From an uncultured Hyphomonadaceae bacterium (lineage in GTDB: Bacteria; Pseudomonadota; Alphaproteobacteria; Caulobacterales; Hyphomonadaceae): 57,572 bases of DNA. A program made the translations under genes and the position numbers. The stretch's first letter is position 1. Each line of letters starts with the position of its first letter. A model generated the notes under the pieces. The model worked only from the letters and a program-made list of their open reading frames with translations, was not told the DNA's origin and did not search any database. The stretch is taken from NCBI GenBank assembly GCA_964429935.1, contig CAYSED010000005.1:1-57572 (forward strand), written 5' to 3'. Shown here in pieces: positions 13,421 to 28,756 of this stretch.

Positions 13421-14740
13421 ATGATTATCGTCGACACCGCCCTGAAACAGCGCGAAGCGGCGGGCCGTCCGGTCCGCGTCGGCATGGTCGGGGCAGGCTT
13501 CATGGGCTCCGGCATCGCGCTGCAGATTGCCCGGTCGGTGCCCGGCATGGTGCTCTGCGCCATTGCCGCCCGCCGCGCGGACCAGGCCGCGGCCGCCTTT
13601 GCGGCAAGCCGGACAGGCGAGACCGTGCGCAACGCCGATACGACCGCCGCCATCGAGGCGGCCATCCGCGACGGCGTGCCGGTCGTTACCGAGGACCCTG
13701 CGGCCATGGCACGCGCCGGCGGCCTCGATGTCATCATCGAGGCGACCGGCTCGATGGACTATGCCCTCCTCGCCGTCGAGGCGGCCATCGAGACCGGCAA
13801 GCATGTCGTCCTGATGAACTGCGAACTCGACGGCACCGTCGGGCCGCTTCTCAAGGCGCGCGCCGACAAGGCCGGCGTCATCCTGACCAATTGCGATGGC
13901 GACCAGCCGGGCGTCCAGATGAACCTCGTCCGCTTCGTCAGGTCGATCGGCGTCAGGCCGGTCCTCTGCGGCAATATCAAGGGCCTGCAGGACACGCGCC
14001 GCACGCCGGACACCCAGCGCGGCTTTGCCGAGAAATGGGGCCAGAACGTCAACATGGTGACGAGCTTTGCCGACGGCACCAAGATCGCCTTCGAGCAGGC
14101 CATTGTCGCCAACGCCACCGGCATGACGGTCGCCCGGCGCGGCATGATCGGCCCCGATCCGACCAATATGGACCCGACCCAGCCGCTCCGCCCGCTCGAG
14201 GACTATGTCGCCCTGCTCGCCCCGCACATCGATCCTGCCGGCCCCGGCATCGTCGATTTTGTCGTCGGCGCGCGGCCGGGTCCCGGCGTCTTCGTCCTCG
14301 GCACGCATGACGATCCGCGCCAGCAGCACTACCTCAATCTCTACAAGCTGGGGCAGGGGCCATACTACCTGTTCTACACGCCCTATCATCTCTGCCATTT
14401 TGAAGTGCCGCTGACGGCGGCGCGCGCCGCGCTCTTCCATGATGCCGCGCTTGCCCCGCTCGGGCGGCCAGAGGTGAGCGTCATCGCCGTCGCCAAGCGC
14501 GCCCTGAAGGCCGGCCATGTGCTCGACGGGATCGGCGGGTTCGACACATATGGCGTCGCCGAGACAAGCGCCGTCACCGCGCGCGACCGGCTCTTGCCGA
14601 TGGGTCTCGCCGAGGGCTGCACCCTCGCACGCGACATCGCGCCCGGAACGGCGCTCGCATTTTCCGATGTCGCGGTGCCGGCCGGCCGGCGCATCGACAC
14701 GCTATATGCCGAGATGGAAGCCCATTTCGGCCTGACATGA
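13421..14740 (+). CDS. NAD(P)-binding oxidoreductase with C-terminal SAF domain (COG4091-like)
   Basis: 439 aa with a Rossmann motif VRVGMVGAGFMGSGIA, a homoserine-dehydrogenase-like core and a C-terminal KRALKAGHVLDGIGGF segment. Confidence 0.68.
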   Translation: MIIVDTALKQREAAGRPVRVGMVGAGFMGSGIALQIARSVPGMVLCAIAARRADQAAAAFAASRTGETVRNADTTAAIEAAIRDGVPVVTEDPAAMARAGGLDVIIEATGSMDYALLAVEAAIETGKHVVLMNCELDGTVGPLLKARADKAGVILTNCDGDQPGVQMNLVRFVRSIGVRPVLCGNIKGLQDTRRTPDTQRGFAEKWGQNVNMVTSFADGTKIAFEQAIVANATGMTVARRGMIGPDPTNMDPTQPLRPLEDYVALLAPHIDPAGPGIVDFVVGARPGPGVFVLGTHDDPRQQHYLNLYKLGQGPYYLFYTPYHLCHFEVPLTAARAALFHDAALAPLGRPEVSVIAVAKRALKAGHVLDGIGGFDTYGVAETSAVTARDRLLPMGLAEGCTLARDIAPGTALAFSDVAVPAGRRIDTLYAEMEAHFGLT

Positions 14741-14784
14741 ACGGGCTCCCCGAAGGGGACGAGGACGAGCGGAGAGAGATCAGG

Positions 14785-15558
14785 ATGAAAGCGGTCATGT
14801 TCGCCGGCGGCTACGGCACCCGGCTCAGCGAGGAGACGACCCTGCGCCCGAAGCCCATGGTCGAGATCGGCGGCCGGCCGATCCTGCATCACATCATGGA
14901 GATCTATGCCGCCCACGGCATCACCGATTTCGTCGTGCTCGGCGGCTACAAGGTCGAGGCCATCAAGGATTATTTCCTCAGCTATCACCGCCGCTCTGGC
15001 GACTTCACGATCGACCTTGCGAGCGGCGAGATAACCTGGTCGCGCGCCCGTGCCGAACCCTGGAAGGTGACCGTGCTCGACACCGGCATCGACACGATGA
15101 CCGGCGGCCGCCTGAAACGCGCCCGCGACGTGATCGGCGACGAACCGTTCTGCCTGACCTATGGCGACGGCGTCGCCGACATCGACATCACGAGGCTCAT
15201 CGCCTTCCACGAGGCCGCCGGGGTCGCCTGCACGGTGACAGCCGTCTCGCCGCCGGGGCGCTTCGGCGTGCTCGGCCTCAGCCCGGGCAATGACCTCGTC
15301 GAGGGCTTCCGGGAGAAGGACGCCGTCGATGTCGGCCTCATCAATGGCGGCTATTTCGTCTGCAATCGCGACGTGTTCGACCTGATCGACGATGACGCGA
15401 CGGTCTGGGAACAGGCCCCGATGCGCCGCCTCGTCGAGCAAGGCCAGCTTGCCGCCTATCGCCATGCCGGCTTCTGGCAGTCCATGGATACCGTGCGCGA
15501 CAAGGAATATCTCGAAGCGCAATATGCCAGGGGCGCGCCTTGGTTGAGGCCGGGCTGA
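14785..15558 (+). CDS. rfbF: Glucose-1-phosphate cytidylyltransferase
   Basis: MKAVMFAGGYGTRLSEETTLRPKPMVEIGGRPILHHIM. Start at ATG 14785, preceded by GGAGAGAG. Confidence 0.9.
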   Translation: MKAVMFAGGYGTRLSEETTLRPKPMVEIGGRPILHHIMEIYAAHGITDFVVLGGYKVEAIKDYFLSYHRRSGDFTIDLASGEITWSRARAEPWKVTVLDTGIDTMTGGRLKRARDVIGDEPFCLTYGDGVADIDITRLIAFHEAAGVACTVTAVSPPGRFGVLGLSPGNDLVEGFREKDAVDVGLINGGYFVCNRDVFDLIDDDATVWEQAPMRRLVEQGQLAAYRHAGFWQSMDTVRDKEYLEAQYARGAPWLRPG

Positions 15559-15645
15559 CGCCGGGCTGAACTCGCCCTGAAGGGCCGTCGGCTCGCCTCC
15601 GGATCAGGGGTTCGGGGCAGGTCTGCGAAGGCTCCCGGACCGGGT

Positions 15646-17133
15646 TCAGGACGAGCGAAGCCGAACCATGGCGAGCGCCGTCCCGGCGAGCCCCAGCACT
15701 TTCGCCTCGATGCCGTCGGGGCGTCCGGCGAGGTGCCACAGGCCGAGAAGGACCGCCAGATAGGCAAGCCCCCCCGTCGCGCAGACCGCCGCAAGGGGCA
15801 AGCCGACGCCGAATACCGCATCGCCTGCCGGGACCAGCCGGCCGAGCAGCAGGAACACGAGCGCCATCACGCTGCCGGCCATCACGGGGCGCATCACGGT
15901 CCGCCCCTGCGCGGCAAAGCCGAGCCCGAGGACCTTTCGCACGATCAGGCAGTCGGCGAGCGTCAGCGCGCCGATCATGGCGCACTTGACGGCGAGAAGC
16001 CCGTCGAGGCCGCCGTTCATGACAGCGAGCACCGCCACGGGGAGGTAGAGCACGACGAAGGCGAGGGAGCGCAGGAACAGGAGCCGCATATGGCCAAGAC
16101 CCATCAGCATGGCCTGCATCGGCGTGAAGACGATCGTCGAGATGATGATCGCCGCCAGCCATTGCACGGCAATCACCGCGCCGGACCATTGCGGCCCGAG
16201 GAGCACGAGCACGACCGGCTCGGCAAACCATGTCAGCACGATCACGACGGGCACGACGAGTGCTGCCATCAGCGCCATGGACGACAGGAACGCCCGCTGC
16301 ACGCGTTCGCGATCAGCCTGGATCTGCGAGAAGGCCGCGAACAGCGAGCGCGATGCCGGCATGGCGATGACATCGGTCACCCGCGTTGTCAGCAGCGTTC
16401 CGATCGAATAGACGCCGAGGGCCGTCCCGCCGCTGATCCGTCCGAGCGAGAGCGTGTCGACAAGCTGGTAGAGGCGGCCGAGAATGCTCGTCCCCGCCAT
16501 CCAGGCCGAATAGCCGAACAGGCGCCGGAAGGATTTCAGCGTCAGGCGGGGCATGGATGGCCGGAACGCATAGGACAGGATTGCCTGGGCGAGCGCGCCG
16601 GCCGTCATGCCCCAGACCAGCGCCCAGTAGGACCCGAGCGCGATGACAAAGCCGGCCGCCGCCGCAAAGGCGACGAATTTCGAGCCAAGCTCGACGGCTG
16701 CCTCGCGACTGAAATCGAGGTCCCTGGCAAAGGATTCGAGGCGCGGATTGCGCACGCCGAGAATGAACACGTAGAGCGCGAGCGCCGCCGTAACCGGGGC
16801 AATGCGCGGATCGCGCATGAAACTCGCGAGCGGCACGGCCAGCGCGATCAGCAGGGCGGCGACGATCAGGCCGCGCAGGAGGCTGATGGTGAACGCGGTG
16901 TCATAGTCGTCATGCTCCAGCGTGCGCAGCTGGATGATGGCCTGGCCCACCGGCAGTTCGGCAAACACCGACACGAGGACGAGAAGGCTCATGGCAGCGG
17001 CGAACACGCCATAATCGTCTGGCAGCAGGAAGCGCGCGACGATGATCGTGCTCGCCAGCCCGAAGACCTGTCCGCCCATGCGCGAGGCGGCAAGCCAGAC
17101 CGTTCCGCCGGCAACTTTCTGGCTGAGCGACAA
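15646..17133 (-). CDS. wzx: Polysaccharide/O-antigen flippase (Wzx, MOP/PST family)
   Basis: About 12 predicted TM segments and an N-terminus SLSQKVAGGTVWLAASRMGGQVFGLASTIIVARFLLPDDYGVFA. I start at in-frame TTG 17133, which has GGGAGA 7 nt upstream. The track ORF to 17907 overlaps the patatin gene. Confidence 0.78.
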   Translation of the reverse strand: MSLSQKVAGGTVWLAASRMGGQVFGLASTIIVARFLLPDDYGVFAAAMSLLVLVSVFAELPVGQAIIQLRTLEHDDYDTAFTISLLRGLIVAALLIALAVPLASFMRDPRIAPVTAALALYVFILGVRNPRLESFARDLDFSREAAVELGSKFVAFAAAAGFVIALGSYWALVWGMTAGALAQAILSYAFRPSMPRLTLKSFRRLFGYSAWMAGTSILGRLYQLVDTLSLGRISGGTALGVYSIGTLLTTRVTDVIAMPASRSLFAAFSQIQADRERVQRAFLSSMALMAALVVPVVIVLTWFAEPVVLVLLGPQWSGAVIAVQWLAAIIISTIVFTPMQAMLMGLGHMRLLFLRSLAFVVLYLPVAVLAVMNGGLDGLLAVKCAMIGALTLADCLIVRKVLGLGFAAQGRTVMRPVMAGSVMALVFLLLGRLVPAGDAVFGVGLPLAAVCATGGLAYLAVLLGLWHLAGRPDGIEAKVLGLAGTALAMVRLRSS

Positions 17134-17240
17134 AGGGGGTCTCCCGGGTGGCTTGGCTGGCTCGCCTGTCTGGCCTATCTGCGAAGCGGTGTGCCCGCCA
17201 GAGGCCCGATGCAGGTTCGGTGCCTGTCCGGGCGTTCGGC

Positions 17241-18353
17241 TCAGGCCTGCTTCTCGGCCCGCGACTGATAGCGCGACGGCCGCCCGATGCGCTCGGTCCC
17301 GAGCGGGTCTTCCGAGCCCTGGAACATCTTGCGCAGGTTCACCGTCGAGCGCCTGCCGATCGCCGCCTTGTTCCTGGCGAGCCACGCGTCCGCCGCCGAC
17401 CGGCCCTTGCCGAACAGGAGGGCGAGGAAGTCCGGCTCGGCATTCAGCTTGGAGGACGCGCCATATTCGGCGAGCGCGGTCTCGTTGCCCAGCATGTGCA
17501 CGAGGACGCGCCGGTAGCCCGTGCCCTCGAGCCGCCCGGCATCGAGCAGCCGCGTCACGAAGTCGATCGCCCGCAGCTCGCGCATCAGCGAGGCATTGAA
17601 CGTGATCTCGTTGATCCGGTTCAGGATGTCGCGCGCCTTTTTCGGCGCGCCCTTGCGCACGACCGGATTGATCTGGACGATCAGCACGTCGTCGGTCTCG
17701 GACTCGTCGAACAGCGGAAAGAGCGGCGGGTTGCCCATATAGCCGCCGTCCCAGTATGGCACGCCGCCGATCTCGACAGCCTTGTAGAGGATCGGCAGGC
17801 AGGCCGACGCCATGACATGGTCGACCGTCAGCTCGCCCTGCCGGAACACCTCGACCCGGCCGTTCTCGACATTGGTCGCCGAGATGTGCAGGCCGATCTC
17901 GCTGCACGTCCGGACCGCGCCGAAGTCGATCATGTCGGCGACGATGTCGCGCAAGGGGTTGATGTCGCCGGGATTGAAGTCATACGGGCTCGCCAGCCGC
18001 GTCATCAGGTCGAACATGACATAGGCGGGCGAGGCATCGAGGCTCCAGTCGCCCATCCAGCGGTTCCAGTAGCCGCGCTGCAGCGGGCTGTTGCGGGCGT
18101 TTTCGCCGATCCGCGTCCAGAACTCCCGCAGCTTCGCCCGCGCGCCTTCGCGCCCGCCGGTCGTCATGCCCTCGGCCAGCACGACGGCATTCATCGCCCC
18201 GGCACTCGCCCCGGTGATCGAGTCGATCCCCACGTCCTCGTCCTCGAGCAGGCGGTCGAGCACGCCCCAGGTGAATGCGCCATGCGAGCCCCCGCCCTGG
18301 AGGGCAAGGTTCAGGCGCTTCGGGGCGCGGGCAGTTCCGTTTGGTTTGGCCAT
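17241..18353 (-). CDS. Patatin-like phospholipase
   Basis: LALQGGGSHGAFTWGVL (oxyanion hole), GASAGAMNA (GxSxG) and YWDGGYMGNPP (catalytic Asp). ATG 18353 has AGGA upstream; the alternative is GTG 18392. Confidence 0.85.
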   Translation of the reverse strand: MAKPNGTARAPKRLNLALQGGGSHGAFTWGVLDRLLEDEDVGIDSITGASAGAMNAVVLAEGMTTGGREGARAKLREFWTRIGENARNSPLQRGYWNRWMGDWSLDASPAYVMFDLMTRLASPYDFNPGDINPLRDIVADMIDFGAVRTCSEIGLHISATNVENGRVEVFRQGELTVDHVMASACLPILYKAVEIGGVPYWDGGYMGNPPLFPLFDESETDDVLIVQINPVVRKGAPKKARDILNRINEITFNASLMRELRAIDFVTRLLDAGRLEGTGYRRVLVHMLGNETALAEYGASSKLNAEPDFLALLFGKGRSAADAWLARNKAAIGRRSTVNLRKMFQGSEDPLGTERIGRPSRYQSRAEKQA

Positions 18354-18681: not shown

Positions 18682-18698
18682 CTGGAGCGGGTACACGG
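18682..18698. repeat. Distal att direct repeat CTGGAGCGGGTACACGG (copy of the tRNA-Gly 3' end)
   Basis: It is identical to 28682-28698, and the flanking bases differ on both sides. Confidence 0.85.
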
Positions 18699-19032
18699 CG
18701 CAATATCCATAAATTTTTCTAATATTTTCTGGAGACTATTTAAAAAGTGACCCGGCAATGTTGCACAGATTGCCCGTCATTTGTTGCACGCTATCCTCGC
18801 GAACATCTGATTGTGCCGGTGGGGTTGGAGGCATTTTCGGGATAACCTCCATACTGTCTTGAAGCTTGAGATCCTGACGAAGCGTCAGAATTTTGTTGGC
18901 CGTCTCGGCCCCATGGGATCAAGAGGCCACAAATTAATGCTGGCAACCTTGAGGGGAAATCGAGCATAGGATTGACTTAGGGCAGCAGAGACAGCTTAAC
19001 TTCACATTCTGTTACTTTTAAGCTACTTGCCC

Positions 19033-19069
19033 AAAAAAGTGCCCCCGTCTGGTAGCGCAGAACGGGGGC
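19033..19069 (-). terminator. Intrinsic terminator-like hairpin for a leftward transcript
   Basis: GCCCCCGT (19041-19048) pairs with ACGGGGGC (19062-19069) across a 13-nt loop. Read on the minus strand it is followed by AC plus TTTTTT (19038-19033). Confidence 0.45.
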
Positions 19070-19095
19070 GTGACCACTCGCAGTTGGAGATTAGA

Positions 19096-19197
19096 ATGAT
19101 CGGTATCGTTCTAGCGAGAAAGCTTTTTTCATTCAATAGCCTCTCTCAGCGATCATTCCTTGTGACGATTCGATTAGCTTGCGACGTCCGGGAATGA
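19096..19197 (+). CDS. Candidate 33-codon upstream ORF translationally coupled to the ABC exporter
   Basis: GGAGA (19086-19090) lies 5 nt before the ATG. The peptide is MIGIVLARKLFSFNSLSQRSFLVTIRLACDVRE. Its TGA overlaps the exporter ATG (ATGA at 19194-19197). Confidence 0.25.
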   Translation: MIGIVLARKLFSFNSLSQRSFLVTIRLACDVRE

Positions 19198-21410
19198 GTC
19201 TGTCAATTCTGAACCTAACCGGCTTTCGCCGCCTGCCATTGCTGCGGCAGGCCGAAGCGGCGGAATGTGGCCTGGCCTGCGTCGGCATGTTGGCAGGCTT
19301 TCACGGCCACCAGACCGATCTGGCCAGCCTGCGCCGTGATTTCCCGATTTCGCTCAAGGGCGCGACACTGAGGGACGTGATCGAGATAGCGGCCCAGATG
19401 AAGCTTGGCGCGCGGGCTCTCAGGTGCGAGGTCGAGGAGCTGCGCGAGCTCAGGCTGCCGGCGATCCTGCATTGGGACATGAGCCATTTTGTGGTCTTGA
19501 AGCAGGTGACCCGGGACCGGGTCGTGCTTCATGATCCTGCGCGCGGCAGGGTTGATGTACCCCTGAGCGAGATCGGCGAGCACTTCACCGGCGTTGCACT
19601 GGAACTTGCACCCGCCTCCGGTTTCCAGAAGAAATCCGAGCGCAAGCTGATCAAGCTGACCAGCCTTGTGAAGATTGACAGCGCAGGCTGGAAAGCTGTC
19701 GCCCAGGGACTGGCACTGTCGCTGTTCCTGCAGGTCTTCGTCCTCCTCAGCCCCTACTACATGCAGCTCGTCATAGACGAGGCAATCCTCAAGGGCGACC
19801 TTTCGCTTCTCACGGCCGTGGCCGTCGGATTTGCTGGTCTCAAGCTGTTTGAGGCGATCACGACCGTTCTGCGCGGGCTCGTGTTTCAGTTCCTGTCTAA
19901 CATTGTCGCGTTCGACATGGAGGCCAGCCTCTTCCATCATCTGACGCGTCTGCCACTGTCTTACTTTCACAGGCGTCACATCGGCGACATCCAGCAGCGC
20001 TTCCAGTCGCTCGGACCCATCCGCGATCTTGTCGTCAACGGTGCGATTGCCGCCCTGATCGATGGCGTCCTTGCGGTATTTGTCGGCGCGATCCTTTTTG
20101 CCTATGACGCGCTGCTCGGCACGGTCGTCGTCGGTGTCATCATCTTCTACGGCATCTTGCGCTTTGCATTCCTCGAACTGTCCAAACGCCTGTCGGGCGA
20201 TCTTCTCGTCGCTGATGCCAAGGAGAATACCAAGTTCCTCGAAACCCTGCGGGCGATGCAGACGGTCAAGGTTGCAGGCATCGAGTCCGAACGCGAAATA
20301 CTCTGGCGCAATCTCGCGGCCCGGACGCTGAACGCCAATATCCGGATCGGCAATGTCAATATCGGCTATGGCGCGATCAGCCAGACGCTGATGGGACTGT
20401 CGAATATCGCCATTGTCTACCTCGCTGCCCAGGCAGCCATACAAGGCAACATGACAATCGGCATGATCACGGCGTTCATGGCCTACAAGGGCCAGTTCGA
20501 AGGCAAGCTGATGGCCCTCCTCGAACAATATGTGCAGCTCAAGCTACTCGACGTGCATCTGGCCCGCGTGGCCGACATTGCGCTCGCCGAGCCTGAAAAA
20601 GGCCTGGCAACACCTGCCATCGGCCGCGACTTTCGGGGCGAGGTCGAGCTGCGGCAGGTCATGTTTCGCTATGCGCCGTTCGAGCCCATGATCCTCAAGG
20701 GGGCGAACCTGAAGATCGAACCGGGCGAGTTCGTTGCCCTTGCCGCTCCGTCAGGCGAGGGCAAATCGACGCTGCTTCGCCTGATCCTCGGCCTTTATGA
20801 GCCGGTCAGCGGCCAGATCCTTTATGACGGACTGCCCGCGACGACCTGGGGCCTTGGCGCTCTGCGCCGCCAGATGGGCGTCGTCATGCAGGACGATACG
20901 CTTCTGGCCGGTTCGATCGAGGAGAACATATCCCTGTTCGATGACAAGCCGGACAATGAGCGCATCCGGTGGGCGGCCAAACTGGCTGCAATCCATGACG
21001 ATATCGAACAGATGCCCATGGCCTATCGCTCGCTGGTCGGCGACATGGGCACAAGCCTTTCCGGGGGCCAGCAGCAGCGCGTCATGCTCGCCAGGGCGCT
21101 TTACCGGAAGCCGAAGCTGCTTGTGATGGACGAGGGGACGAGCCAGCTCGACATTGAGACCGAGAAGCGGATCAATGCAGCGCTGAAGGATCTGGATATC
21201 ACGCGAATCGCTGCGGCTCATCGGCCTGACACGCTCGCGGCAGCGGACCGGATTGTACATGTGCGAGGCGGTCAACTTGGAGAGGTTCGGCCAAAGCCTG
21301 TTGCTCAAGGGGCAGTTCCAGCCCTGCTATCAACAAGTTTGACGGCGTCAAAAGCAAGAGGACGACTTCTCGCACCGATTGACACAGATATTTTTGACAC
21401 CGAGGATTGA
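19194..21410 (+). CDS. Bacteriocin-type ABC exporter with N-terminal C39 cysteine peptidase domain (CvaB/CdzA-like)
   Basis: The C39 catalytic Cys lies in AAECGLACVGM and the His in HFVVLKQV. There are six TM segments, Walker A APSGEGKST, signature LSGGQQQRVMLARAL and Walker B LLVMDEGTSQLD. Start at ATG 19194; the track uses TTG 19179. Confidence 0.9.
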   Translation: MSLSILNLTGFRRLPLLRQAEAAECGLACVGMLAGFHGHQTDLASLRRDFPISLKGATLRDVIEIAAQMKLGARALRCEVEELRELRLPAILHWDMSHFVVLKQVTRDRVVLHDPARGRVDVPLSEIGEHFTGVALELAPASGFQKKSERKLIKLTSLVKIDSAGWKAVAQGLALSLFLQVFVLLSPYYMQLVIDEAILKGDLSLLTAVAVGFAGLKLFEAITTVLRGLVFQFLSNIVAFDMEASLFHHLTRLPLSYFHRRHIGDIQQRFQSLGPIRDLVVNGAIAALIDGVLAVFVGAILFAYDALLGTVVVGVIIFYGILRFAFLELSKRLSGDLLVADAKENTKFLETLRAMQTVKVAGIESEREILWRNLAARTLNANIRIGNVNIGYGAISQTLMGLSNIAIVYLAAQAAIQGNMTIGMITAFMAYKGQFEGKLMALLEQYVQLKLLDVHLARVADIALAEPEKGLATPAIGRDFRGEVELRQVMFRYAPFEPMILKGANLKIEPGEFVALAAPSGEGKSTLLRLILGLYEPVSGQILYDGLPATTWGLGALRRQMGVVMQDDTLLAGSIEENISLFDDKPDNERIRWAAKLAAIHDDIEQMPMAYRSLVGDMGTSLSGGQQQRVMLARALYRKPKLLVMDEGTSQLDIETEKRINAALKDLDITRIAAAHRPDTLAAADRIVHVRGGQLGEVRPKPVAQGAVPALLSTSLTASKARGRLLAPIDTDIFDTED

Positions 21411-21554
21411 CCCGCTCGATCCGCTGTCCTTAACATCACGTCATGGCTGAAGAGTTTAGTCATCACGCAGGTTTGGGCATTCCAGTTCTTATTGGTCAGG
21501 CGCGTAGTGGCGCATCCTATAAATTGCGTGCAACTCGCAGAACGGAGACTAACA

Positions 21555-22430
21555 ATGCGGGAGCTAAAGGCATTTGAACTTGTGCAGGTAGGTGGCGGAT
21601 TTGATCCATTTACTGGGGAACGAATTTTAGACTCTGTTTTTGCTACGCTGAGAGGGGAAGGTGGAGGTGGGGCCAACGGTTTTTCGGGATTTGGGTTTGG
21701 AGCATTTGGACTTGGAGGCGCAAGTAGTCCGCTCGATAACCAGCCCGATGATGGCACGGGTTTTTCCCTGATCGAGATCGACGACGAAACCTACGTCGAC
21801 ACGCAACAAGGTCTTTCTGACGTCCAATTGATAGAGCTCGATTCCGCATTATCGAACCTACCTTCGGATGTGGTTGATGCAGCTTTGGCTTGGACGCAGG
21901 CCTTGAGTGCGTATGTCGAGAGTCTCGCAATACGAGCTGGACAGATGGGAGGGACGGCTGCTCAGTATGCAGAGGGCTTAGGCGGACTGGCAAAGGGCTT
22001 GGGAGCCCTTGCTGTTGCGCTTGAGGGGTACTCCATCTATCAATCCATGCAAGCAAATGGCGCTACTCCTGAAAACGTTTCGGCCGCGATTGGGCTGATC
22101 GCGGGCGTTGCTGCGGGTTGGGCCACTGGCGCCGCTGTTGGAGGAGTTTTTGGGGGGCCCGCTGGAGCACTTGTAGGCGCGTTCGTTGGGGCAGTTGTTG
22201 GTGCCGTTGGTCCTCTCGTATACGAGACAGTGTCGCAAAATGTTTCCGATTTCACGGCCTTCAACGAGGAGTTCAATAATTTCTTCGATCCGAATAGCGA
22301 CGGGGATGTTGATCTGGACCGAGTCCTTTCGCTCTTCACCGATACATCTACGTTCAATGATGGCAATCCGAACAACAATCCTGGTGGCGGTTGGGAAGAG
22401 CCAGATACGGGATTCTATTCGGAGCCATAG
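21555..22430 (+). CDS. Double-glycine-leader secreted protein (bacteriocin-like, glycine-zipper), 291 aa
   Basis: GGAGA lies 6 nt upstream of ATG 21555. The leader MRELKAFELVQVGGG fits the GG-leader consensus. The mature part contains the Gly-rich run GEGGGGANGFSGFGFGAFGLGG, the hydrophobic zipper IGLIAGVAAGWATGAAVGGVFGGPAGALVGAFVGAVVGAVG and an acidic Asn/Asp tail. Confidence 0.7.
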   Translation: MRELKAFELVQVGGGFDPFTGERILDSVFATLRGEGGGGANGFSGFGFGAFGLGGASSPLDNQPDDGTGFSLIEIDDETYVDTQQGLSDVQLIELDSALSNLPSDVVDAALAWTQALSAYVESLAIRAGQMGGTAAQYAEGLGGLAKGLGALAVALEGYSIYQSMQANGATPENVSAAIGLIAGVAAGWATGAAVGGVFGGPAGALVGAFVGAVVGAVGPLVYETVSQNVSDFTAFNEEFNNFFDPNSDGDVDLDRVLSLFTDTSTFNDGNPNNNPGGGWEEPDTGFYSEP

Positions 22431-22450
22431 TATTTTATAGCGAACACCTC

Positions 22451-22476
22451 AGGTGCGCTACGAAAGTGGCGCACCT
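22451..22476. terminator. Hairpin between convergent genes (possible bidirectional terminator)
   Basis: AGGTGCGC (22451-22458) pairs with GCGCACCT (22469-22476), followed by TCTTC. It lies between the bacteriocin-like gene and the minus-strand operon. Confidence 0.45.
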
Positions 22477-22514
22477 TCTTCGCTCTCAAGAACTACGAAA
22501 TTTAGCTTAAGCTC

Positions 22515-22805
22515 TTATTCTTCATGGCCTGATGCGACGAGCTGCTCAAGGCTTAAGCCGACTAAAATGATCGAAACCAGTGCCACGGCGAATGCGGATG
22601 CTAAGATCGGCTGATTTTGAAAACGAAGCATTGGAATGAAAGCAATAACCGAAAATCCAAATATTAAAGCAGCAAACCTTTCAAGCGGCTGCCTGTAAGT
22701 TATCCGATTTTTGCATGACGGACAATTAAATACAGCGCCGTGGCGACGTTTAATTTTGCCACCTAGAGGCATAGCCCAACTACACTTTGGACATTTTGCG
22801 ACCAT
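22515..22805 (-). CDS. Small zinc-ribbon protein with two C-terminal TM helices (candidate immunity/accessory protein)
   Basis: 96 aa with CPKC...17 aa...CPSC, then FAALIFGFSVIAFIPML and ILASAFAVALVSIILVGLSL. It is the last gene of the HlyD operon. Confidence 0.55.
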   Translation of the reverse strand: MVAKCPKCSWAMPLGGKIKRRHGAVFNCPSCKNRITYRQPLERFAALIFGFSVIAFIPMLRFQNQPILASAFAVALVSIILVGLSLEQLVASGHEE

Positions 22806-22855
22806 TTTGGATGCTCCTGATAAATATTGGGACTAAACGCATAAATTTACACCTT

Positions 22856-24796
22856 TTAAGGTGTGGCGCATTCAATTAAATCAGTTATCGAAGTTGCGCG
22901 TTGCGGATAGTTAATAGTAGTGTGGCCCTGTTCTGGAATTACTTGAATTCTTGTACAATCGCGTTTTTCCAATGTCTCAAAGAAGTCTTCTACAAAGTCA
23001 CTGCGGATCAATTCGTCCCTCTCTCCCGCAAAAATCCAAATCGGCGTTTCTCGAGCTTTTCTTTGTACTGACCTGAGACTCGGTTCAATCATTGAATTGG
23101 CTGGCGCCCTGATCTTGGGTTCTCGGGAGCCCTGATCGATCTCACAGTGCTCCTCTGCATAGGCCAACATCGTAAGCCGGTTCGACGCCTCATTGGGTGA
23201 TCGATAAAAGCGGTTTCTGCTGCGTTGATCTGCAGTTCGTTCTTGAAGCATGTGGCAGACGGAAAGCAATGGTGCATCAAGTGCTACAAAGGAGATTTCT
23301 TTGTCCGTAGCTGCCAGACTAGCTGCAACGGCAAAGCCGCCAAAACTGCCCCCGCTTAGGCCTATGGGTTTGTCGGGTAGAAGTTCATGAGCAAGCTCAA
23401 TAAATTCAGATGTCTCAGCGCTTAAGTCTTCGAATGAAAAGTTGTAGATTCGTCGCGTATGCTCTCCACCGTACCGTGTTGAGCCGCTAATTTCCGGCAT
23501 GATGACGCGATAATTTTTCTCAAGCCATGGTGCTACAAGTTGTTCATCGGTCCTGGATGCGGAGGCGGCGGGGCCACCATGAAAATGGATGAGAGTTCCT
23601 TCAACCTCACCTGGCGGCTCGAATATCCAATAGGGAGTTTCACCTGCGGACGTCCTGAGCGTGGCCCAGCTCCGTGGCGCACGGTTTATTTCAGCATTGT
23701 CGTAAAGATGATGAAGTTGAAGCTCGCCGTCGCGCCAGACCAGTAAGGCGTTTTTCCCTGCCGTGGTTTCAAGCAAACCAATTGCGAAATCGTCACTCAC
23801 ATCGACATGCACGTCCTGCAAAATGACAGCATTGTCAGGCAACTCTGCTCGTAGCTTGTTAATTAGCCTTTCTGTCATTGGGGATGTATCCAGGACATCA
23901 AATGGTGGCAGTACATTTATAGAACCACCGAACTCTACGCCTGGTAGTGAAATCATGGACCGATGCGATGTCGCGAGGTCGGACAGCTTTTTCACTGAGG
24001 TCACGATGCCTGTGTCCTGTTTCGAGAATTCGAGCAGATATCGGATCGAATTGTCAGCTTGAGCGACTGCAAAACCCGACGAACCAGCTGAGACATGTGT
24101 CTCTGTTCGGAGGGCCGCAATTGAAGCTCCAAGGGGAAAGGTTTCAATTCCTGAAGCCTCTTCGGTATGTACGTTGAGGTCGAACTGATCAGAGCTGGAC
24201 GGTGAGATCCAAGCTATTACTTGAGCATTTGACGCCCAAGACCGAAATACCGTGCTTAAGGCTGGAATCGGAGGACCCGGCGAGTTGGTATCGATGTTCC
24301 AACCAGCAAGCTGGCGGGGCGGTTGGCCTTCAAGATACTGGTCCACATGTATAGGTATATAGGCGTAGTTGCGGTCGATGCTAAACACACCGGCGGCAGT
24401 TGTTGATCGGTAGGACTTATCTGCCGACTCAGTCCATAAGCCGACCCGCTCTATGGTCCCGGTCTGTACGTCGATACGAAAGACCTCCCGGCTATTCGAA
24501 TAGGCGAGCAATTCGTCCTCGTGAATGAACCCCTGCAAAAGAATTCTGTCTGGGAGCGGGATTTCATGGATGACCTTAGCGGCTCGATCAATAAGTAGAA
24601 TGCCATCGCTGAACTCTAGCGCAAACATATTGCCTGACGGCGATGCGACGAGTTGTTCGATATTCGTGAAGTCGTTCGTCTCGATTGAGCGGCCTGTCAG
24701 AGGCATCGTCGAGCCGGGGCCCTTCTCGCATGCTCCGGTAACAGCAATCAGACTTAAGATTATGCTGTATCTGAGAGCACATTTTACGACAAACAT
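22856..24796 (-). CDS. Lipoprotein with N-terminal beta-propeller-like region and C-terminal S9 (prolyl oligopeptidase-type) alpha/beta-hydrolase domain
   Basis: Signal/lipobox SLIAVTGAC, nucleophile elbow GLSGGSFGGF, acid IFAGERDELI and His IPEQGHTT, in the order Ser-Asp-His. Confidence 0.75.
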   Translation of the reverse strand: MFVVKCALRYSIILSLIAVTGACEKGPGSTMPLTGRSIETNDFTNIEQLVASPSGNMFALEFSDGILLIDRAAKVIHEIPLPDRILLQGFIHEDELLAYSNSREVFRIDVQTGTIERVGLWTESADKSYRSTTAAGVFSIDRNYAYIPIHVDQYLEGQPPRQLAGWNIDTNSPGPPIPALSTVFRSWASNAQVIAWISPSSSDQFDLNVHTEEASGIETFPLGASIAALRTETHVSAGSSGFAVAQADNSIRYLLEFSKQDTGIVTSVKKLSDLATSHRSMISLPGVEFGGSINVLPPFDVLDTSPMTERLINKLRAELPDNAVILQDVHVDVSDDFAIGLLETTAGKNALLVWRDGELQLHHLYDNAEINRAPRSWATLRTSAGETPYWIFEPPGEVEGTLIHFHGGPAASASRTDEQLVAPWLEKNYRVIMPEISGSTRYGGEHTRRIYNFSFEDLSAETSEFIELAHELLPDKPIGLSGGSFGGFAVAASLAATDKEISFVALDAPLLSVCHMLQERTADQRSRNRFYRSPNEASNRLTMLAYAEEHCEIDQGSREPKIRAPANSMIEPSLRSVQRKARETPIWIFAGERDELIRSDFVEDFFETLEKRDCTRIQVIPEQGHTTINYPQRATSITDLIECATP

Positions 24797-24832
24797 CCTA
24801 GAACCTATTGGACTTGATACGGTGCGCGCGAC

Positions 24833-26077
24833 TTAGCGCAGTGAAAGCAACGGCTCCAGGAGCCACTCGACGAGTTTTCGATCCTCAAGCACGATATCGG
24901 CAGAAAGCTCCATTCCAGACTGAAGGGCGATGTCTTGGCCAAAGGCGCGAACCGACTGGGCGGCGAGTGCTACCTCCACCTTGTACACAGGTTCCGGGTT
25001 TTGCGACAAAATACCCAGTTCTTGCGGGAACAGAGTCGTCTCCGATACGCGGGCAACATATCCTTCAGCTACGCCAAATTTCTGATAGGGCAGTGCGTCG
25101 TATAGGAGCTTTACTGGCTTTCCTAGCTCGACAAAGGCTATGGCGCGCGAGGGCACATGCAACTCAGCAATAAGCTCTGCACCAGGGGGCCCGATCGCAA
25201 GTAGCGGGATCGTTGGGTCGGCACGCTCTCCGACACGAGCTTGAAGCGCCGTTACCTTTCCACTCATCGGGGCTGTAACAAGGTGCATTGCACTCGCCTC
25301 AGTTTGGCGCATCTGAGAATCGAGCTGAGCCAGCCTTTGGCCGATATCAGCTTGATCGCGGTTCAAGTCGGAACGAATTCTGCGCTTCTCGATCACTAGG
25401 CGGCTTTGCGCTGCTTCGGCGGCACTGATCTGAGCTTCAAGCTGCAAGCGGGACTGGTCGAGTACCGCGACATCGTCGGTACGCTGCATATGCTCGGCGG
25501 CTGTGATTAACCCTTCATCCAAAAACCGCTCAGTATCAGTCGCACGGTGGCGAGCTGTCTGAAGGCGCTGAACGAGCACAGCAAGCTGCGCTCTGCCCTC
25601 AGATTCCTGTCGCGCGGCATCTGCAACTCTCTGGGCAAGATCATCCTCGGCAATTTGCGCCGCAGCCCTAAGCTCGCTTAGTCGGTCATTAAGCAGAGTC
25701 TGTTCAAGTGACAAGGCCGACAAAGCATTGTCGCTCAGGCTGTCTCCATCATCCAAAATCCGGTCACTTGCGATAGTTGCTAGCGGTGTGCCGGCTTCAA
25801 CAATGGCTCCGTCGGCGATGAGGACTTGCTTCACGATACCGGACTCAACGGCGTAAACCCGTGCCTCTGAGCCGTCCGGCCGTAGCTTGCCGCGTACGGT
25901 TTCTTTGCGGGCGAAGTTCGCGGTGAACAGGAATACGAGGAGCGCAGCGATGAACAGTCCGATCAACCAGGTGATGCGTGACCAAGCCGGAGGAACGACG
26001 CCGGTAGGGCGTCCGTAAAGCTCGTTGCTAGCCGTATGCGCCTCCAGAACCTCTTCCCTGAATAGTCCGTCAGCCAT
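24833..26077 (-). CDS. HlyD-family membrane fusion protein (CvaA/CdzB-like T1SS adaptor)
   Basis: N-terminal TM ITWLIGLFIAALLVFLF, lipoyl-like GIVKQVLIADGAIVEAGTPLATI, a long coiled coil and C-terminal VKLLYDALPYQKFGVAEGYV. Start at ATG 26077 (MADGLFREE) with AGGAA upstream. Confidence 0.85.
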   Translation of the reverse strand: MADGLFREEVLEAHTASNELYGRPTGVVPPAWSRITWLIGLFIAALLVFLFTANFARKETVRGKLRPDGSEARVYAVESGIVKQVLIADGAIVEAGTPLATIASDRILDDGDSLSDNALSALSLEQTLLNDRLSELRAAAQIAEDDLAQRVADAARQESEGRAQLAVLVQRLQTARHRATDTERFLDEGLITAAEHMQRTDDVAVLDQSRLQLEAQISAAEAAQSRLVIEKRRIRSDLNRDQADIGQRLAQLDSQMRQTEASAMHLVTAPMSGKVTALQARVGERADPTIPLLAIGPPGAELIAELHVPSRAIAFVELGKPVKLLYDALPYQKFGVAEGYVARVSETTLFPQELGILSQNPEPVYKVEVALAAQSVRAFGQDIALQSGMELSADIVLEDRKLVEWLLEPLLSLR

Positions 26078-26478
26078 CGTTGCTTTATTCCTGTCATCAA
26101 CTTTTATTAGATAGCCCATAGAAGGCTGCAAAGTAAATTCTTTCAATTTCGGATCGGACAGTACCGCCATCTAAGCGATCCTCACGAGCGCATGAAGGCA
26201 TGACAGGAAGGTCGGGTTTAGTGAGGGCAAGATTAAAGGGTTGGCACCCTCGGCCCCTTAACCCCTTGTCTGCACATCGCTTTTTTGGTGCCCTGTGCAC
26301 AGGCATGTGGCGTACGGGTATTGGGAGGTTCCCCGGTGCCGCTGGGTGGCGCGTACGCCAGGGTTTGCAAGGCCTTGCGCGGGCTTGCAAGATGTTGCGG
26401 GGAATACCGCATAAACCAACTGGTCCGTACCCGCCCGGCGATGCAGTCTGGGAGCCTCGATCAGGAGGCCCAACCCAA

Positions 26479-26862
26479 GTGAAACCCCGCGTCCATCTCC
26501 GGCTCGATCCTGCCCTGCTCGGCCAGCTTGAGCGCACCGCGCGCCAGGGCAAGACGACGAAGACCGCCCTGCTGGAAGCGGCGCTCCGGCTCTATTTCGA
26601 CCCGGCCCGCAACCTGCCTCTGGAGGAGCGCCTGTTCCGGCGGCTCGAATGGCGGGGCAACCTTCAGGTTGAGGCGCTGATGCAGTTTGTCCTTTACTGG
26701 CTCACCCATACCGAAACCCTGATCGAGGGCGACCGCGACTTTGCCCATGCGCGCGGGCGGCGGCGCATGGACTATTTCATCGACCAGGTGGCAAGCCGGC
26801 TCGGCAACCGGCGCACGCTGGCGCAGGAATCCTGGCGCTGGGAAGGGCCAAAGCTCGAATAG
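26479..26862 (+). CDS. Ribbon-helix-helix (CopG-like) protein
   Basis: GTG 26479 follows AGGAGG (26463-26468). VKPRVHLRLDPALLGQLERTARQGKTTKTALLEAALRLYF has the beta-alpha-alpha pattern of RHH regulators. Confidence 0.5.
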   Translation: MKPRVHLRLDPALLGQLERTARQGKTTKTALLEAALRLYFDPARNLPLEERLFRRLEWRGNLQVEALMQFVLYWLTHTETLIEGDRDFAHARGRRRMDYFIDQVASRLGNRRTLAQESWRWEGPKLE

Positions 26863-26931
26863 GCAGGCCTTGCGAGCAATTGCACGCAAACCGACTGGGC
26901 GGGGCTGCCGTCCTCTGGGACACTCTTGCGC

Positions 26932-27252
26932 ATGTCCCGTCCTTCCGATGCCGAGATTGAACACGCCATCCGGACCGTCGCCTCCCTGATAGACCGGTTC
27001 GGCGATGCCTACTGGCCGGTGCTCGACATGCTGGAGGCTGAACTTGCTGCGCGCCGCGCCAGGGCCGGAAAGCTCGCTGCCTGGCTCGGGAACAGTTCGC
27101 TGCGAGAGCCATCAGGCCGAATGGCAGGGCCTGCCATTCGGCCACGTCCAGCCTCCTTGCCTGTGTCCGGGCGCGTCAAGGGTCGCGTTCGCGACCGCAC
27201 GGCGGCCCGGCCCTTGACCCGCCCGGACACAGGCGACACGCAACGCGGCTAG
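26932..27252 (+). CDS. Hypothetical protein of the integration module (3' part uncertain, reads through palindromes)
   Basis: MSRPSDAEIEHAIRTVASLIDRFGDAYWPVLDMLEAELAARRARAGKL looks protein-like. The C-terminal third is encoded by inverted repeats that translate similarly on both strands. Confidence 0.3.
   Translation: MSRPSDAEIEHAIRTVASLIDRFGDAYWPVLDMLEAELAARRARAGKLAAWLGNSSLREPSGRMAGPAIRPRPASLPVSGRVKGRVRDRTAARPLTRPDTGDTQRG
27115..27143. repeat. Perfect 29-nt palindrome GGCCGAATGGCAGG-G-CCTGCCATTCGGCC
   Basis: 14-nt arms read directly from the sequence. Confidence 0.8.
27160..27233. repeat. Large inverted repeat (23-nt arms, 22/23 complementary, 28-nt spacer)
   Basis: CCTGTGTCCGGGCGCGTCAAGGG (27160-27182) against CCCTTGACCCGCCCGGACACAGG (27211-27233). 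Confidence 0.8.
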
Positions 27253-27359
27253 GCCTCCTCGCTCACGCCGGTCGGCTGTCGCCGACGGCTCCGCGGGGGC
27301 GGCGCAGGCGCGCCGGGCGACGTTTGTCGCCTGTCGCGCGTCTGCGGCAGACAGAAGCG

Positions 27360-28496
27360 CTAAGCGAACATATCCTTCGGGAACGGGTGCGCAATCTTGA
27401 GCAGTTCGTCGCGTCGCCAGGCAAGCGAGCCGCCATCGCCATAGGCAGGCCGGTTCGTCGCATGGCCCATCAGCAGGCAGCGCAGGCCATAGTCGAGCCC
27501 GGCCTCCAGCATGCGCTTCTCGAACGCGTGCCGGAACGAATAGATGACATGCCTGTCTGTCGGAAACAGGCCGCGATTGCGGAACGCCTTGACGAGGGAC
27601 TGGGAGAGAAGGTCGTTCCGGTCGCGATAATGCGGGAACCCGTTCCTTGCCCCTTTCATCGCTTCCAGCGACACCCCGACCAGCGGAATGTCGCGGATCG
27701 AGGATCCGGTCTTGATCTCGCGGCCCTTGTGCGGCCGGATGCGGATATGCGGCACGTCCGCATCAAGGCAGATATCGTCCGCCAGCAGGTTGGCAATCTC
27801 GCTCGGCCGACAGCCTGTCTCGATCAGGACATAGACGATGCGCCGGGCCTCGTCCTTGATGCCGGCCAGGGCGTCCGGCACGAGGATCTTGTCGCGCACC
27901 CAGGCATCCGGGAAGGGCGGCGTCTCGGCGAGGCTCGCTTCCCGGAACGAGAGATTGCGGAACGGGTTCGGGCGGTCCTCCTCGCCGATGTGCCGGAAAT
28001 ACTCGCGCAGGAGCTTCCGCAGGTTGCCAAGATCGCGATTGGCCGTGTTGGCCCCTCTTGCCGCAACGCCATTCTTCGGCTTCAGGCGACCGGCCCACCA
28101 ATTGTAGAATTCGAGTGCGTCCGCGCGGGTGATCGCCTCGACGGGCTTGTCGCCGACAAGCTCGATGAAATAGGCAATCGCCCGCTGCTTGGTCTTGCGC
28201 CAGAGCCGCTTCTGGTTCGGCGACTTGTTGAGAAGCTCGCCAATCGCGATCCGCTCGCAATAGGTCTCGAAGGCTTCCGAGAGGAGCGTGGCGGGCCGCT
28301 GCACGCCGCCGAGCAGGGCATCGGCTTCGGCCTTGACCGCTAGCCTTGCATCCCCGGTATCGACCCGCTCGACCGCGCTGATGCGCTTCATCACTTCCTC
28401 AAGGGCAATCAGCGCGGGAAACTCATCGGCTGGCGCATAGGAGAAGCCGCGCGAGACGGCCCGCGCGACGGCCGAGCGATAGCGCCGTTCGGCCAT
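27360..28496 (-). CDS. int: Tyrosine-type site-specific integrase
   Basis: 378 aa with ETGCRPSEIANL (catalytic Arg region), YSFRHAFEKRM and LLMGHATNRPAYGDGG (His/Tyr). It is adjacent to the tRNA-Gly 3' end. Confidence 0.9.
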   Translation of the reverse strand: MAERRYRSAVARAVSRGFSYAPADEFPALIALEEVMKRISAVERVDTGDARLAVKAEADALLGGVQRPATLLSEAFETYCERIAIGELLNKSPNQKRLWRKTKQRAIAYFIELVGDKPVEAITRADALEFYNWWAGRLKPKNGVAARGANTANRDLGNLRKLLREYFRHIGEEDRPNPFRNLSFREASLAETPPFPDAWVRDKILVPDALAGIKDEARRIVYVLIETGCRPSEIANLLADDICLDADVPHIRIRPHKGREIKTGSSIRDIPLVGVSLEAMKGARNGFPHYRDRNDLLSQSLVKAFRNRGLFPTDRHVIYSFRHAFEKRMLEAGLDYGLRCLLMGHATNRPAYGDGGSLAWRRDELLKIAHPFPKDMFA

Positions 28497-28681
28497 GGCC
28501 CTCGCCGAACCGGCCGCGTTTCTGCAGGTACCGGTCTTCGTTCCGCATCGCGCTCAGCTCCCCGCGCATCTGATGCCAATTGATACACGGAAAGTTACGC
28601 AAAACACGCACCCCAGCCAAGCTGGAGCGGTGTGGATAGTGGTTAAGCAACTGATTTAACAGGATAAAAGGCTCTGGGCCT

Positions 28682-28698
28682 CTGGAGCGGGTACACGG
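28682..28698. repeat. tRNA-proximal att direct repeat CTGGAGCGGGTACACGG
   Basis: Identical to 18682-18698. It covers the last 16 nt of tRNA-Gly plus 1 nt. Confidence 0.85.
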
Positions 28699-28756
28699 GA
28701 TCGAACCGAGATCGGTAGCTTGGAAGGCTACTGCATTACCATTATGCTATACCCGC
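28683..28756 (-). tRNA. glyT: tRNA-Gly (anticodon UCC)
   Basis: The reverse complement GCGGGTATAGCATAATGGTAATGCAGTAGCCTTCCAAGCTACCGATCTCGGTTCGATCCCGTGTACCCGCTCCA folds as a cloverleaf. Stems are acceptor 7 bp, D 4 bp and anticodon 5 bp, with loop CTTCCAA, T-loop TTCGATC and an encoded CCA. There is one U-U mismatch in the T stem. Confidence 0.9.

Follow-up and report, generated by a model that had tools for sequence, protein, structure and literature searches.

What is a 291-residue protein with a microcin-type double-glycine leader doing directly behind the gene of a leader-cutting exporter, and could a cargo of this size be a toxin? The question is raised by one gene (positions 21555 to 22430) in a 57,572-nucleotide (nt) stretch of contig CAYSED010000005.1, the whole of which is called the window below. 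To our knowledge, Gram-negative toxins with double-glycine leaders are usually sought only among peptides of less than about 150 residues. Here, we propose as a reasonably probable reading that the product of the gene is the precursor of a colicin-like, pore-forming bacteriocin, exported by the transporter and accompanied by its own immunity gene. The product is probably a large secreted antibacterial toxin belonging to a very rare family, and a membrane-active one at that seems likely. The gene and its leader had been pointed out in an initial annotation of the window; the similarity to colicins and pyocins, the TonB-box-like motif, the S9-type partner and the surrounding tRNA-Gly island are additions of the present analysis. 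Coordinates of all features are collected in Table 1.

We began with the reading frame and the leader. The open reading frame (ORF) translates exactly to the 291-residue protein that had been described, with the N-terminus MRELKAFELVQVGGG, and the Shine-Dalgarno sequence GGAGA does lie 6 nt upstream of the ATG. The longest possible reading of this ORF starts at TTG 21492; this alternative was rejected, as the homologues begin at MREL. The ATG at 21555 is the likely start because both homologues and most of the related cargo genes begin with MREL or no more than a few residues away from it, which also answers the earlier reservation that the real start codon might lie elsewhere. With cleavage assumed after G15, the leader carries the residues claimed for it (Gly at −1 and −2, Val at −4, Leu at −7, Glu at −8 and Leu at −12), and it shows the general features of such leaders, that is a length of about 15–30 residues, a GG, GA or GS end, hydrophobic residues at −4, −7 and −12 and an acidic residue at −8. 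A consensus was built from 73 leaders encoded beside related transporters, in which the informative positions are those that the search pattern had left free. These too agree with MRELKAFELVQVGGG: Met at −15 was found in 46 of the 73 leaders, Arg at −14 in 38 and Glu at −13 in 47. When all six frames of the window were searched with the leader pattern, the precursor was the single matching ORF. A promoter scan found promoter-like sites to be no commoner than in shuffled sequence. The hairpin that follows the gene is strong, and none of 200 shuffles folded as well (−26.9 kcal/mol).

The gene directly upstream encodes the exporter, in which Pfam recognizes Peptidase_C39 (1.2e-32), ABC_membrane (9e-27) and ABC_tran (1e-30), the last two being parts of an ATP-binding cassette (ABC) transporter; its alternative start is TTG 19179. 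Alignment with PCAT1 (PDB 4ry2, E 7e-91) places the motifs ECGLAC, SHFVV and HDP on the catalytic residues Cys21, His99 and Asp115, and since these motifs fall on the catalytic positions, the peptidase is of the active type and not a degenerate C39-like domain. We then surveyed the best 80 of 183 exporter relatives confirmed in reference genomes (their loci carry L numbers here). The closest relatives, at 71–76% identity, come from Henriciella, Parvularcula and unclassified Pseudomonadota (metagenome-assembled genomes), and Caulobacterales relatives stand at 56%. Nearly all of the surveyed loci contain at least one ORF with an MREL...E...V-S-G-G/A leader. Among loci whose exporter gene is complete, the five closest are L009–L013; in these, the exporter and a convergent HlyD gene, the latter closely related to the HlyD adaptor of the window (E 1e-120 to 1e-131), flank a variable cassette. 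Each of these cassettes has a leader-bearing gene, followed in L010 and L013 by a small protein with two transmembrane (TM) segments; in the window, the putative toxin gene and the next two genes fill this slot. By gene order, the exporter/HlyD pair is a bracket around differing leader genes, which amounts to a swappable cargo cassette. The intact catalytic triad, the leaders of the homologues and the MREL...VSGG cargo of related loci all support the earlier suggestion that the protein is a double-glycine substrate of the adjacent C39 exporter. As the locus also encodes a HlyD adaptor, the membrane-fusion partner of such exporters in Gram-negative systems, we regard the protein as very likely the cargo of that exporter.

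How widespread is this cargo? A HMMER search of 1.84 billion cluster representatives (about 15 billion proteins) returned only two full-length homologues, both encoded on short metagenomic contigs: P0002 (267 amino acids (aa), E 4e-8) and P0006 (320 aa, E 6e-6). At 27–33% identity, they are collinear with the protein of the window from end to end: leader, Gly/aromatic region, acidic region, helices, hairpin and tail. The reading of the leader would have suffered had the homologues lacked one, and both have it, at 15 residues each (MRELTEAEMEMVSGA and MRELTAQERKLVSGG); the leader of P0002 also gave weak matches to Pfam MccV. Word-indexed homologue searches returned only the query and P0002, or the P0006 query itself; scans of genomes and metagenomes with the family alignment found no further members, and tblastn of plasmids with the toxin family gave no match. 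The toxin family is very rare and has three members. Such extreme rarity, together with the atypical GC content of the cassette and the result of the promoter scan, would suit a chance ORF or leader, or a decaying gene on a degenerate island that yields no functional product. We consider this very improbable, as the ORF is intact and has a Shine-Dalgarno sequence, the collinear full-length homologues retain leader, hairpin and tail residues at the stated low identity, all of the neighbouring transport genes are intact, and a strong terminator-like hairpin stands 3' of the stop codon.

The predicted product of a cut after G15 has 276 aa and a mass of about 27 kDa. Its three-part layout was described correctly in the initial annotation: the Gly/Phe run, the helices with the zipper hairpin and the acidic, Asn-rich tail are all present. 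The mature protein is strongly acidic, with 36 Asp and Glu versus 5 Lys and Arg (net charge about −31). Residues 174–223 form a run of 50 residues without any charge, as is likewise the case in P0006. Within the 46-residue hairpin there are 10 GxxxG motifs, a number that 10,000 shuffles of these residues never produced, and the two zipper arms are split by P202 and closed off by P220. The tail (residues 222–291) contains 15 Asp and Glu and 10 Asn in 70 residues, and N241, N247, D251, L254, P272, F287 and P291 are invariant across the family. As for the calcium-loop-like motif noticed earlier in this tail, DPNSDG does occur, at residue 245. Neither homologue has it, and it does not satisfy the EF-hand pattern of PROSITE (PS00018), so an EF-hand or calcium loop is given little weight. 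A match of the protein to troponin C (E 6.1) was noise.

The evidence that carries our reading of the protein as a pore-former comes from its core. The one weak Pfam match of the protein was to Colicin (PF01024), in which residues 139–218 align with profile positions 91–173 of 185 (E 0.021 for the full protein, 0.0041 for the domain alone). The best match among solved structures was pyocin S5 (PDB 6thk, residues 399–482, E 0.0064), and this match improved to E 3.9e-6 over 116 positions (S5 residues 366–483) once the search used a profile built on 11 sequences with the C-terminal module in common. When hhalign was used to compare this 11-sequence profile with one made from six colicin pore domains (Ia-type, E1, K, S4 and two from Arsenophonus and Hafnia), the two aligned over 79 columns at a probability of 88.6% and an E-value of 2.6e-6 (85–89% across runs). 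In a re-run the score was 41.6, as against 18.2 ± 3.7 (maximum 30.9) for 100 column shuffles performed separately within the pre-hairpin, hairpin and tail blocks, i.e., 6.4 standard deviations above the shuffles. The profile of the three family members placed the pre-hairpin helix (residues 140–168) on the same colicin columns (74%, E 2.8e-5), and the same register was obtained with the 11-sequence profile, the 3-sequence profile and the segment of residues 137–173 alone. Moreover, an uncharged helical hairpin of about 40–50 residues near the C-terminus, one of the features by which colicin domains are judged, is present at residues 174–223. Residues of about 137–222 thus appear collinear with helices 6–9 of colicins and pyocins in a way that hairpin composition alone does not seem to explain, though this falls short of proof; true homology of the core to colicin pore domains we put at slightly better than even. 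The module is not confined to this family. Residues of about 133–232 match the C-termini of a group of related actinobacterial proteins (E 2e-5 to 4e-4); one of these, P0007, carries at its N-terminus, according to Pfam, a WXG100 domain of the type VII secretion kind. The C-terminus of WXG100 proteins would be where the toxin domains of polymorphic toxins usually sit.

If the protein attacks related cells, it would have to pass their outer membrane, and a motif near the mature N-terminus may bear on this. The sequence DSVFATL occupies mature residues 11–17, and a motif of this kind follows the leader in all three family members. It is reminiscent of the classical TonB boxes of receptors and TonB-dependent colicins, as are clearer versions in other cargo, namely DKVIVTGKR (L013), EIIVHGSR (L036) and EIIVTAYR (L015); these look similar to the boxes of the two TonB-dependent receptors in the fetched loci, DEVIVTAAR and DEITVTATR (L038, L073). 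When the N-terminal 60 residues of the mature products of 66 cargo genes were searched, a generic 7-residue pattern occurred 4 times versus 0.17 expected; the pattern had been picked post hoc, and 3 of the 4 occurrences are the toxin family itself. We treat DSVFATL as a candidate TonB box, a lead and not a result. Uptake of the toxin by a TonB-dependent route is a tentative suggestion which we hold to be rather doubtful.

The initial annotation had also drawn attention to the small neighbouring gene, and this interest proved well placed. The 96-aa protein with a zinc ribbon and two TM helices has a homologue of 106 aa, also a zinc-ribbon/2-TM protein, whose gene follows that of the toxin homologue in L001 (L001 1516–1836, E 3e-5). 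The L001 protein passes the cut-off of TIGR04104 (CxxC-20-CxxC) with 45.4 bits versus 45, while the protein of the window, with 18.2 bits, does not. A metagenome scan with the alignment of these candidate immunity proteins returned only an unrelated zinc-ribbon protein. On balance we favour an immunity function for the 96-aa protein. The next gene encodes a lipoprotein-like serine hydrolase of the S9 type, whose GGSFGG aligns to GGSYGG of the S9 peptidase 8wt1. In L002, the gene of the toxin homologue is followed by that of a lipoprotein with an HGGP hydrolase motif, which starts at the same position as in the S9 protein of the window; the contig ends after it. Counterparts beside cargo genes were found in L002 (1538–2839), L036 (13386–15281) and L071 (6827–8884). 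In L036 (Peptidase_S9 6.6e-30) and L071, S9 or S9-like peptidases stand directly after cargo genes, and in the loci L050, L051 and L053 they lie elsewhere. The recurring S9 or S9-like peptidases of unrelated exporter loci have a signal or lipoprotein N-terminus.

Several observations weigh against the proposal of a colicin-like pore-former with an immunity gene. The Pfam Colicin match reaches only 15.1 bits for the full protein and 17.4 for the domain, below the gathering cut-off of 23.4. Either the pre-hairpin helices or the hairpin, taken alone, gave hhalign scores near background, and in the reverse search the colicin profile (positions of about 135–233) aligned to all three family members with weak E-values of 0.08 to 11. 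In the PDB search, pyocin S5 was the sole colicin-type match and the other solved colicins were absent; no counterpart of colicin helices 1–5 was detectable in the protein. AlphaFold2 gave all-helical models of low confidence, both from the single sequence (predicted local distance difference test (pLDDT) score 41) and from the 11-sequence domain alignment (pLDDT 53), and Foldseek comparison of the models with the PDB gave no match at E ≤ 0.001. Fold-level evidence is absent because the models are of low confidence and Foldseek found no match. The TonB-box pattern was defined post hoc and the copy in the window is its most degenerate version, and of the two other loci just one retains the candidate immunity gene, the contig of the second ending too early to show it. 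Finally, generic glycine-zipper families also match relatives of the toxin.

The last point leads to the question of whether the protein is a toxin at all. Glycine-zipper hairpins occur in many non-toxic proteins of inner or outer membranes (e.g., SlyB, YiaD, PdsO), the very families that match the toxin relatives, and a family of three members, its function read from sequence alone, might equally comprise exported non-toxins, e.g., surface or membrane-anchored factors, in which the hairpin is a generic anchor and the likeness to colicins a matter of composition. However, the block-wise shuffles kept composition within each block and were still clearly exceeded by an alignment that includes the non-zipper helix. 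In addition, type VII proteins of the WXG100 kind carry this module C-terminally, where toxin domains are placed, a small membrane protein accompanies it in two loci, and the gene sits in a cargo slot that otherwise holds bacteriocin-like genes. A non-toxic role therefore appears quite unlikely to us.

The main rival is a toxin of another kind. CdzC and CdzD are contact-dependent glycine-zipper bacteriocins of Caulobacter with 84–86 aa, and Cdz-like proteins in general have 60–151 aa and are almost wholly hydrophobic (PMC5380434). A Cdz-like toxin would form surface aggregates on the producer and kill its neighbours on contact, and would be neither diffusible nor imported through a receptor. 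The protein shares with these bacteriocins the kind of export system, the G[GAS] leader and the two proline-flanked glycine zippers (criteria ii and iii of PMC5380434); relatives of its exporter occur in Caulobacterales, and a small membrane immunity protein, as CdzI is, would be present. Thus, two of the four features that define Cdz-like proteins (PMC5380434), the leader and the proline-flanked zippers, were found, while length and a short tail were not: 291 aa lies outside the range and the tail has 70 residues. Also, the hairpin comes after about 160 mostly acidic residues outside the zippers, the helix ahead of it can be aligned with colicins, the protein has a TonB-box-like motif, and the net charge of about −31 argues for solubility. 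We consider a Cdz-like mode of action unlikely, though less so than a non-toxic role.

The sequence itself establishes the leader, the exporter with a peptidase of the active type, the adaptor, the island, the hairpin and the co-occurrence of the small membrane protein and the S9 hydrolase. From these, our preferred reading, the exported colicin-like pore-former, can be put together as a proposed mechanism. The C39 domain would cut after G15, and the exporter, the HlyD adaptor and an outer-membrane channel encoded elsewhere would secrete the 276-residue acidic protein in one step. The disordered, Gly/Phe-rich N-terminal part with its TonB-box-like motif might then bring the toxin into a related target cell by way of a receptor in its outer membrane, perhaps with help from TonB. 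From the periplasm, the C-terminal module (residues of about 137–223, two amphipathic helices and the hairpin) would enter the inner membrane and dissipate the membrane potential. The zinc-ribbon/2-TM protein would shield the producer within the membrane, and the S9 lipoprotein may trim or mature the toxin, or destroy stray toxin in the periplasm. As a more speculative proposal, for which we see less than an even chance, these parts could define a bacteriocin class that joins microcin-style release (leader and C39 type I exporter) to colicin-style attack (TonB box and pore module), with zinc-ribbon/2-TM immunity and S9-dependent maturation or neutralization, and with a pore module common to proteobacterial type I and actinobacterial type VII cargo.

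Comparison with known systems shows what is shared and what is not. Like class II microcins and bacteriocins (microcin V, exported by CvaAB), the protein has a 15-residue leader of the M-R-x-L...E-L...V-S-G-G type, a dedicated C39 ABC exporter with HlyD, a Gly-rich mature part and a small membrane protein for immunity (here a candidate). Uptake of microcin V requires TonB. Unlike these peptides, the protein has a mature form of 276 aa and about 27 kDa, beyond the 10-kDa limit, and so is not a microcin; it also has the colicin-like module, the long acidic tail, the zinc-ribbon immunity candidate and the S9 partner. With pore-forming colicins and pyocin S5 (PF01024; PDB 6thk) it shares the apparent collinearity of residues of about 137–222 with helices 6–9 and an immunity gene, here putative, that is convergent with the toxin gene, as in the fetched colicin loci. 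TonB-dependent colicins have a disordered Gly-rich N-terminal region with a TonB box, to which the N-terminal region of the protein, with its TonB-box-like motif, may be comparable. It differs from colicins in remaining under the Pfam cut-off, in having no counterpart of helices 1–5 and no receptor-binding coiled coil, in its release by leader and type I exporter and not by a lysis protein, in an immunity candidate unrelated to the colicin immunity families, and in its host, which is probably an alphaproteobacterium. In accordance with the mode of release, no lysis gene was found in the island.

To the Cdz system (PMC5380434), the likeness lies in type I export, the G[GAS] leader, the proline-flanked zippers, presumed pore formation, a small inner-membrane immunity protein and horizontal spread; the protein is set apart by its 291 aa, its strongly acidic character and the extra N- and C-terminal regions, this comparison having been made by description and not by sequence. 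With type VII toxins the likeness is confined to the module, which matches the C-termini of WXG100 proteins; the delivery domain and the secretion system differ. Among type VII membrane toxins, TspA of Staphylococcus aureus is said to resemble colicin Ia, and TelE of Streptococcus gallolyticus has a glycine zipper. What may be new here is a colicin-sized toxin with a microcin-type leader and type I export.

The survey of exporter loci also yielded observations on other cargo. The size of the protein had been called unusual, and among the 80 loci cargo of more than 200 aa is rare, although large cargo exists: besides the toxin family, leader-bearing proteins of this size were a 309-aa ORF (L015 471–1400) and a 256-aa ORF (L043 12270–13040, identical to L044 3369–4139), neither with a Pfam match at E ≤ 0.05. 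Ten mid-sized cargo proteins were scanned, of which eight had no family match and none reached a Pfam family cut-off; the cargo repertoire is therefore essentially unannotated. Some ORFs directly after C39 exporters combine the leader, e.g., MRELSEEELYEVVGG, with what by eye looks like a LuxR-type helix-turn-helix DNA-binding domain (L015 5531–5881, L016 3145–3498, L036 12236–12508), a hint at regulators that the transporter cleaves or exports. A conserved spacer of about 300 nt between exporter and cargo, with a TTGACA box and the GC-rich hairpin CCGGTGGTGAAGCACCGG, is common to four loci with differing cargo genes (L009 8960–9305, L010 11957–12293, L011 12116–12446, L012 4747–5109). The window lacks this spacer, which may be a regulatory leader. 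Acidic runs of the DxDxDG type (DTDGDGDFDLNLNTNSDGD; DTDGDGDRD) were seen in the cargo of L009 (9300–9701), L011 (12370–12849) and L056 (8154–8489). They may represent calcium-binding segments of non-RTX proteins exported by type I systems.

The whole locus lies on a complete integrative island of 10.0 kb (18682–28698) at tRNA-Gly(TCC), with the gene of a tyrosine integrase beside that of the tRNA. The GC content is 48–60% inside the island, versus 64–72% in the flanks. Its layout is that of two convergent operons which meet at the hairpin: the plus-strand operon consists of the exporter gene and the toxin gene, and the minus-strand operon of the genes for the HlyD adaptor, the S9-type lipoprotein and the 96-aa protein. 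To the left of the island (13421–17907) we found genes for an oxidoreductase with a DRL catalytic domain, a nucleotidyl transferase and a 752-aa Polysacc_synt_3 protein. As these sugar-nucleotide and polysaccharide genes adjoin it, the island is inserted beside a surface-polysaccharide cluster.

Table 1. Features of the island and of the putative toxin gene, in order of position in the window.
Feature	Coordinates	Strand	Basis
Left attachment (att) repeat CTGGAGCGGGTACACGG	18682..18698	.	17-nt direct repeat, without mismatch, of the tRNA-Gly 3' end; spacing exactly 10,000 nt
Peptidase-containing ABC transporter (C39, transmembrane domain, ATPase)	19194..21410	+	Pfam; PCAT1 alignment
Shine-Dalgarno GGAGA	21544..21548	+	6 nt 5' of ATG 21555, direct reading
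Putative toxin precursor gene, 291 aa	21555..22430	+	Translation; sole full-length homologues P0002 and P0006
15-residue double-glycine leader MRELKAFELVQVGGG	21555..21599	+	Match to 73-leader consensus; conserved in both homologues
TonB-box-like motif DSVFATL, aa 26–32 (putative)	21630..21650	+	Aligns with ETVHVYG and DTVHVRG of the homologues
Gly/Phe-rich run, aa 34–55, probably disordered	21654..21719	+	Sequence; model pLDDT about 30 over residues 1–100
Amphipathic helices before hairpin, aa 137–173	21963..22073	+	Pyocin S5 and hhalign alignment to colicin helices 6–7
Uncharged glycine-zipper helical hairpin, aa 174–223, turn G200-G201-P202	22074..22223	+	GxxxG count; aligns to colicin helices 8–9
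Acidic Asn-rich tail, aa 224–291, DPNSDG at aa 245	22224..22427	+	Composition
Strong hairpin, likely two-way terminator between the convergent putative toxin and immunity genes	22439..22484	.	−26.9 kcal/mol, z = −4.1
Candidate immunity protein, 96 aa, CxxC...CxxC zinc ribbon and 2 TM helices	22515..22805	-	Translation; TM segments at aa 41 and 64
Lipoprotein-like S9-type serine hydrolase, 646 aa	22856..24796	-	Pfam Peptidase_S9 8e-7, Hydrolase_4 2e-11
HlyD-family membrane-fusion adaptor	24833..26170	-	TIGR01843 3.9e-39; HlyD_3 2e-13
Ribbon-helix-helix protein, divergent from the HlyD operon	26200..26862	+	Pfam RHH_1 E 8.6e-4, 19.6 bits, just under the 20.5 cut-off
Tyrosine integrase of the island	27360..28496	-	Pfam Phage_integrase E 1e-5, 25.9 bits, just under the 27.1 cut-off
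tRNA-Gly(TCC), integration site; its 3' end is the right att repeat (28682–28698)	28683..28756	-	ARAGORN, Rfam

If the reading of the protein as a 27-kDa cargo with a colicin-related module is true, exporters of this type would deliver colicin-sized toxins without lysis of the producer, and microcins, colicins, Cdz proteins and type VII membrane toxins would be linked by one reusable module. The reading also assigns testable roles to two uncharacterized partners, the zinc-ribbon membrane protein and the S9 peptidase; an immunity role of the former, if true, would be the first functional hypothesis for the uncharacterized TIGR04104 family. Beyond this one locus, the survey indicates many unannotated cargo genes in marine and freshwater Alphaproteobacteria.

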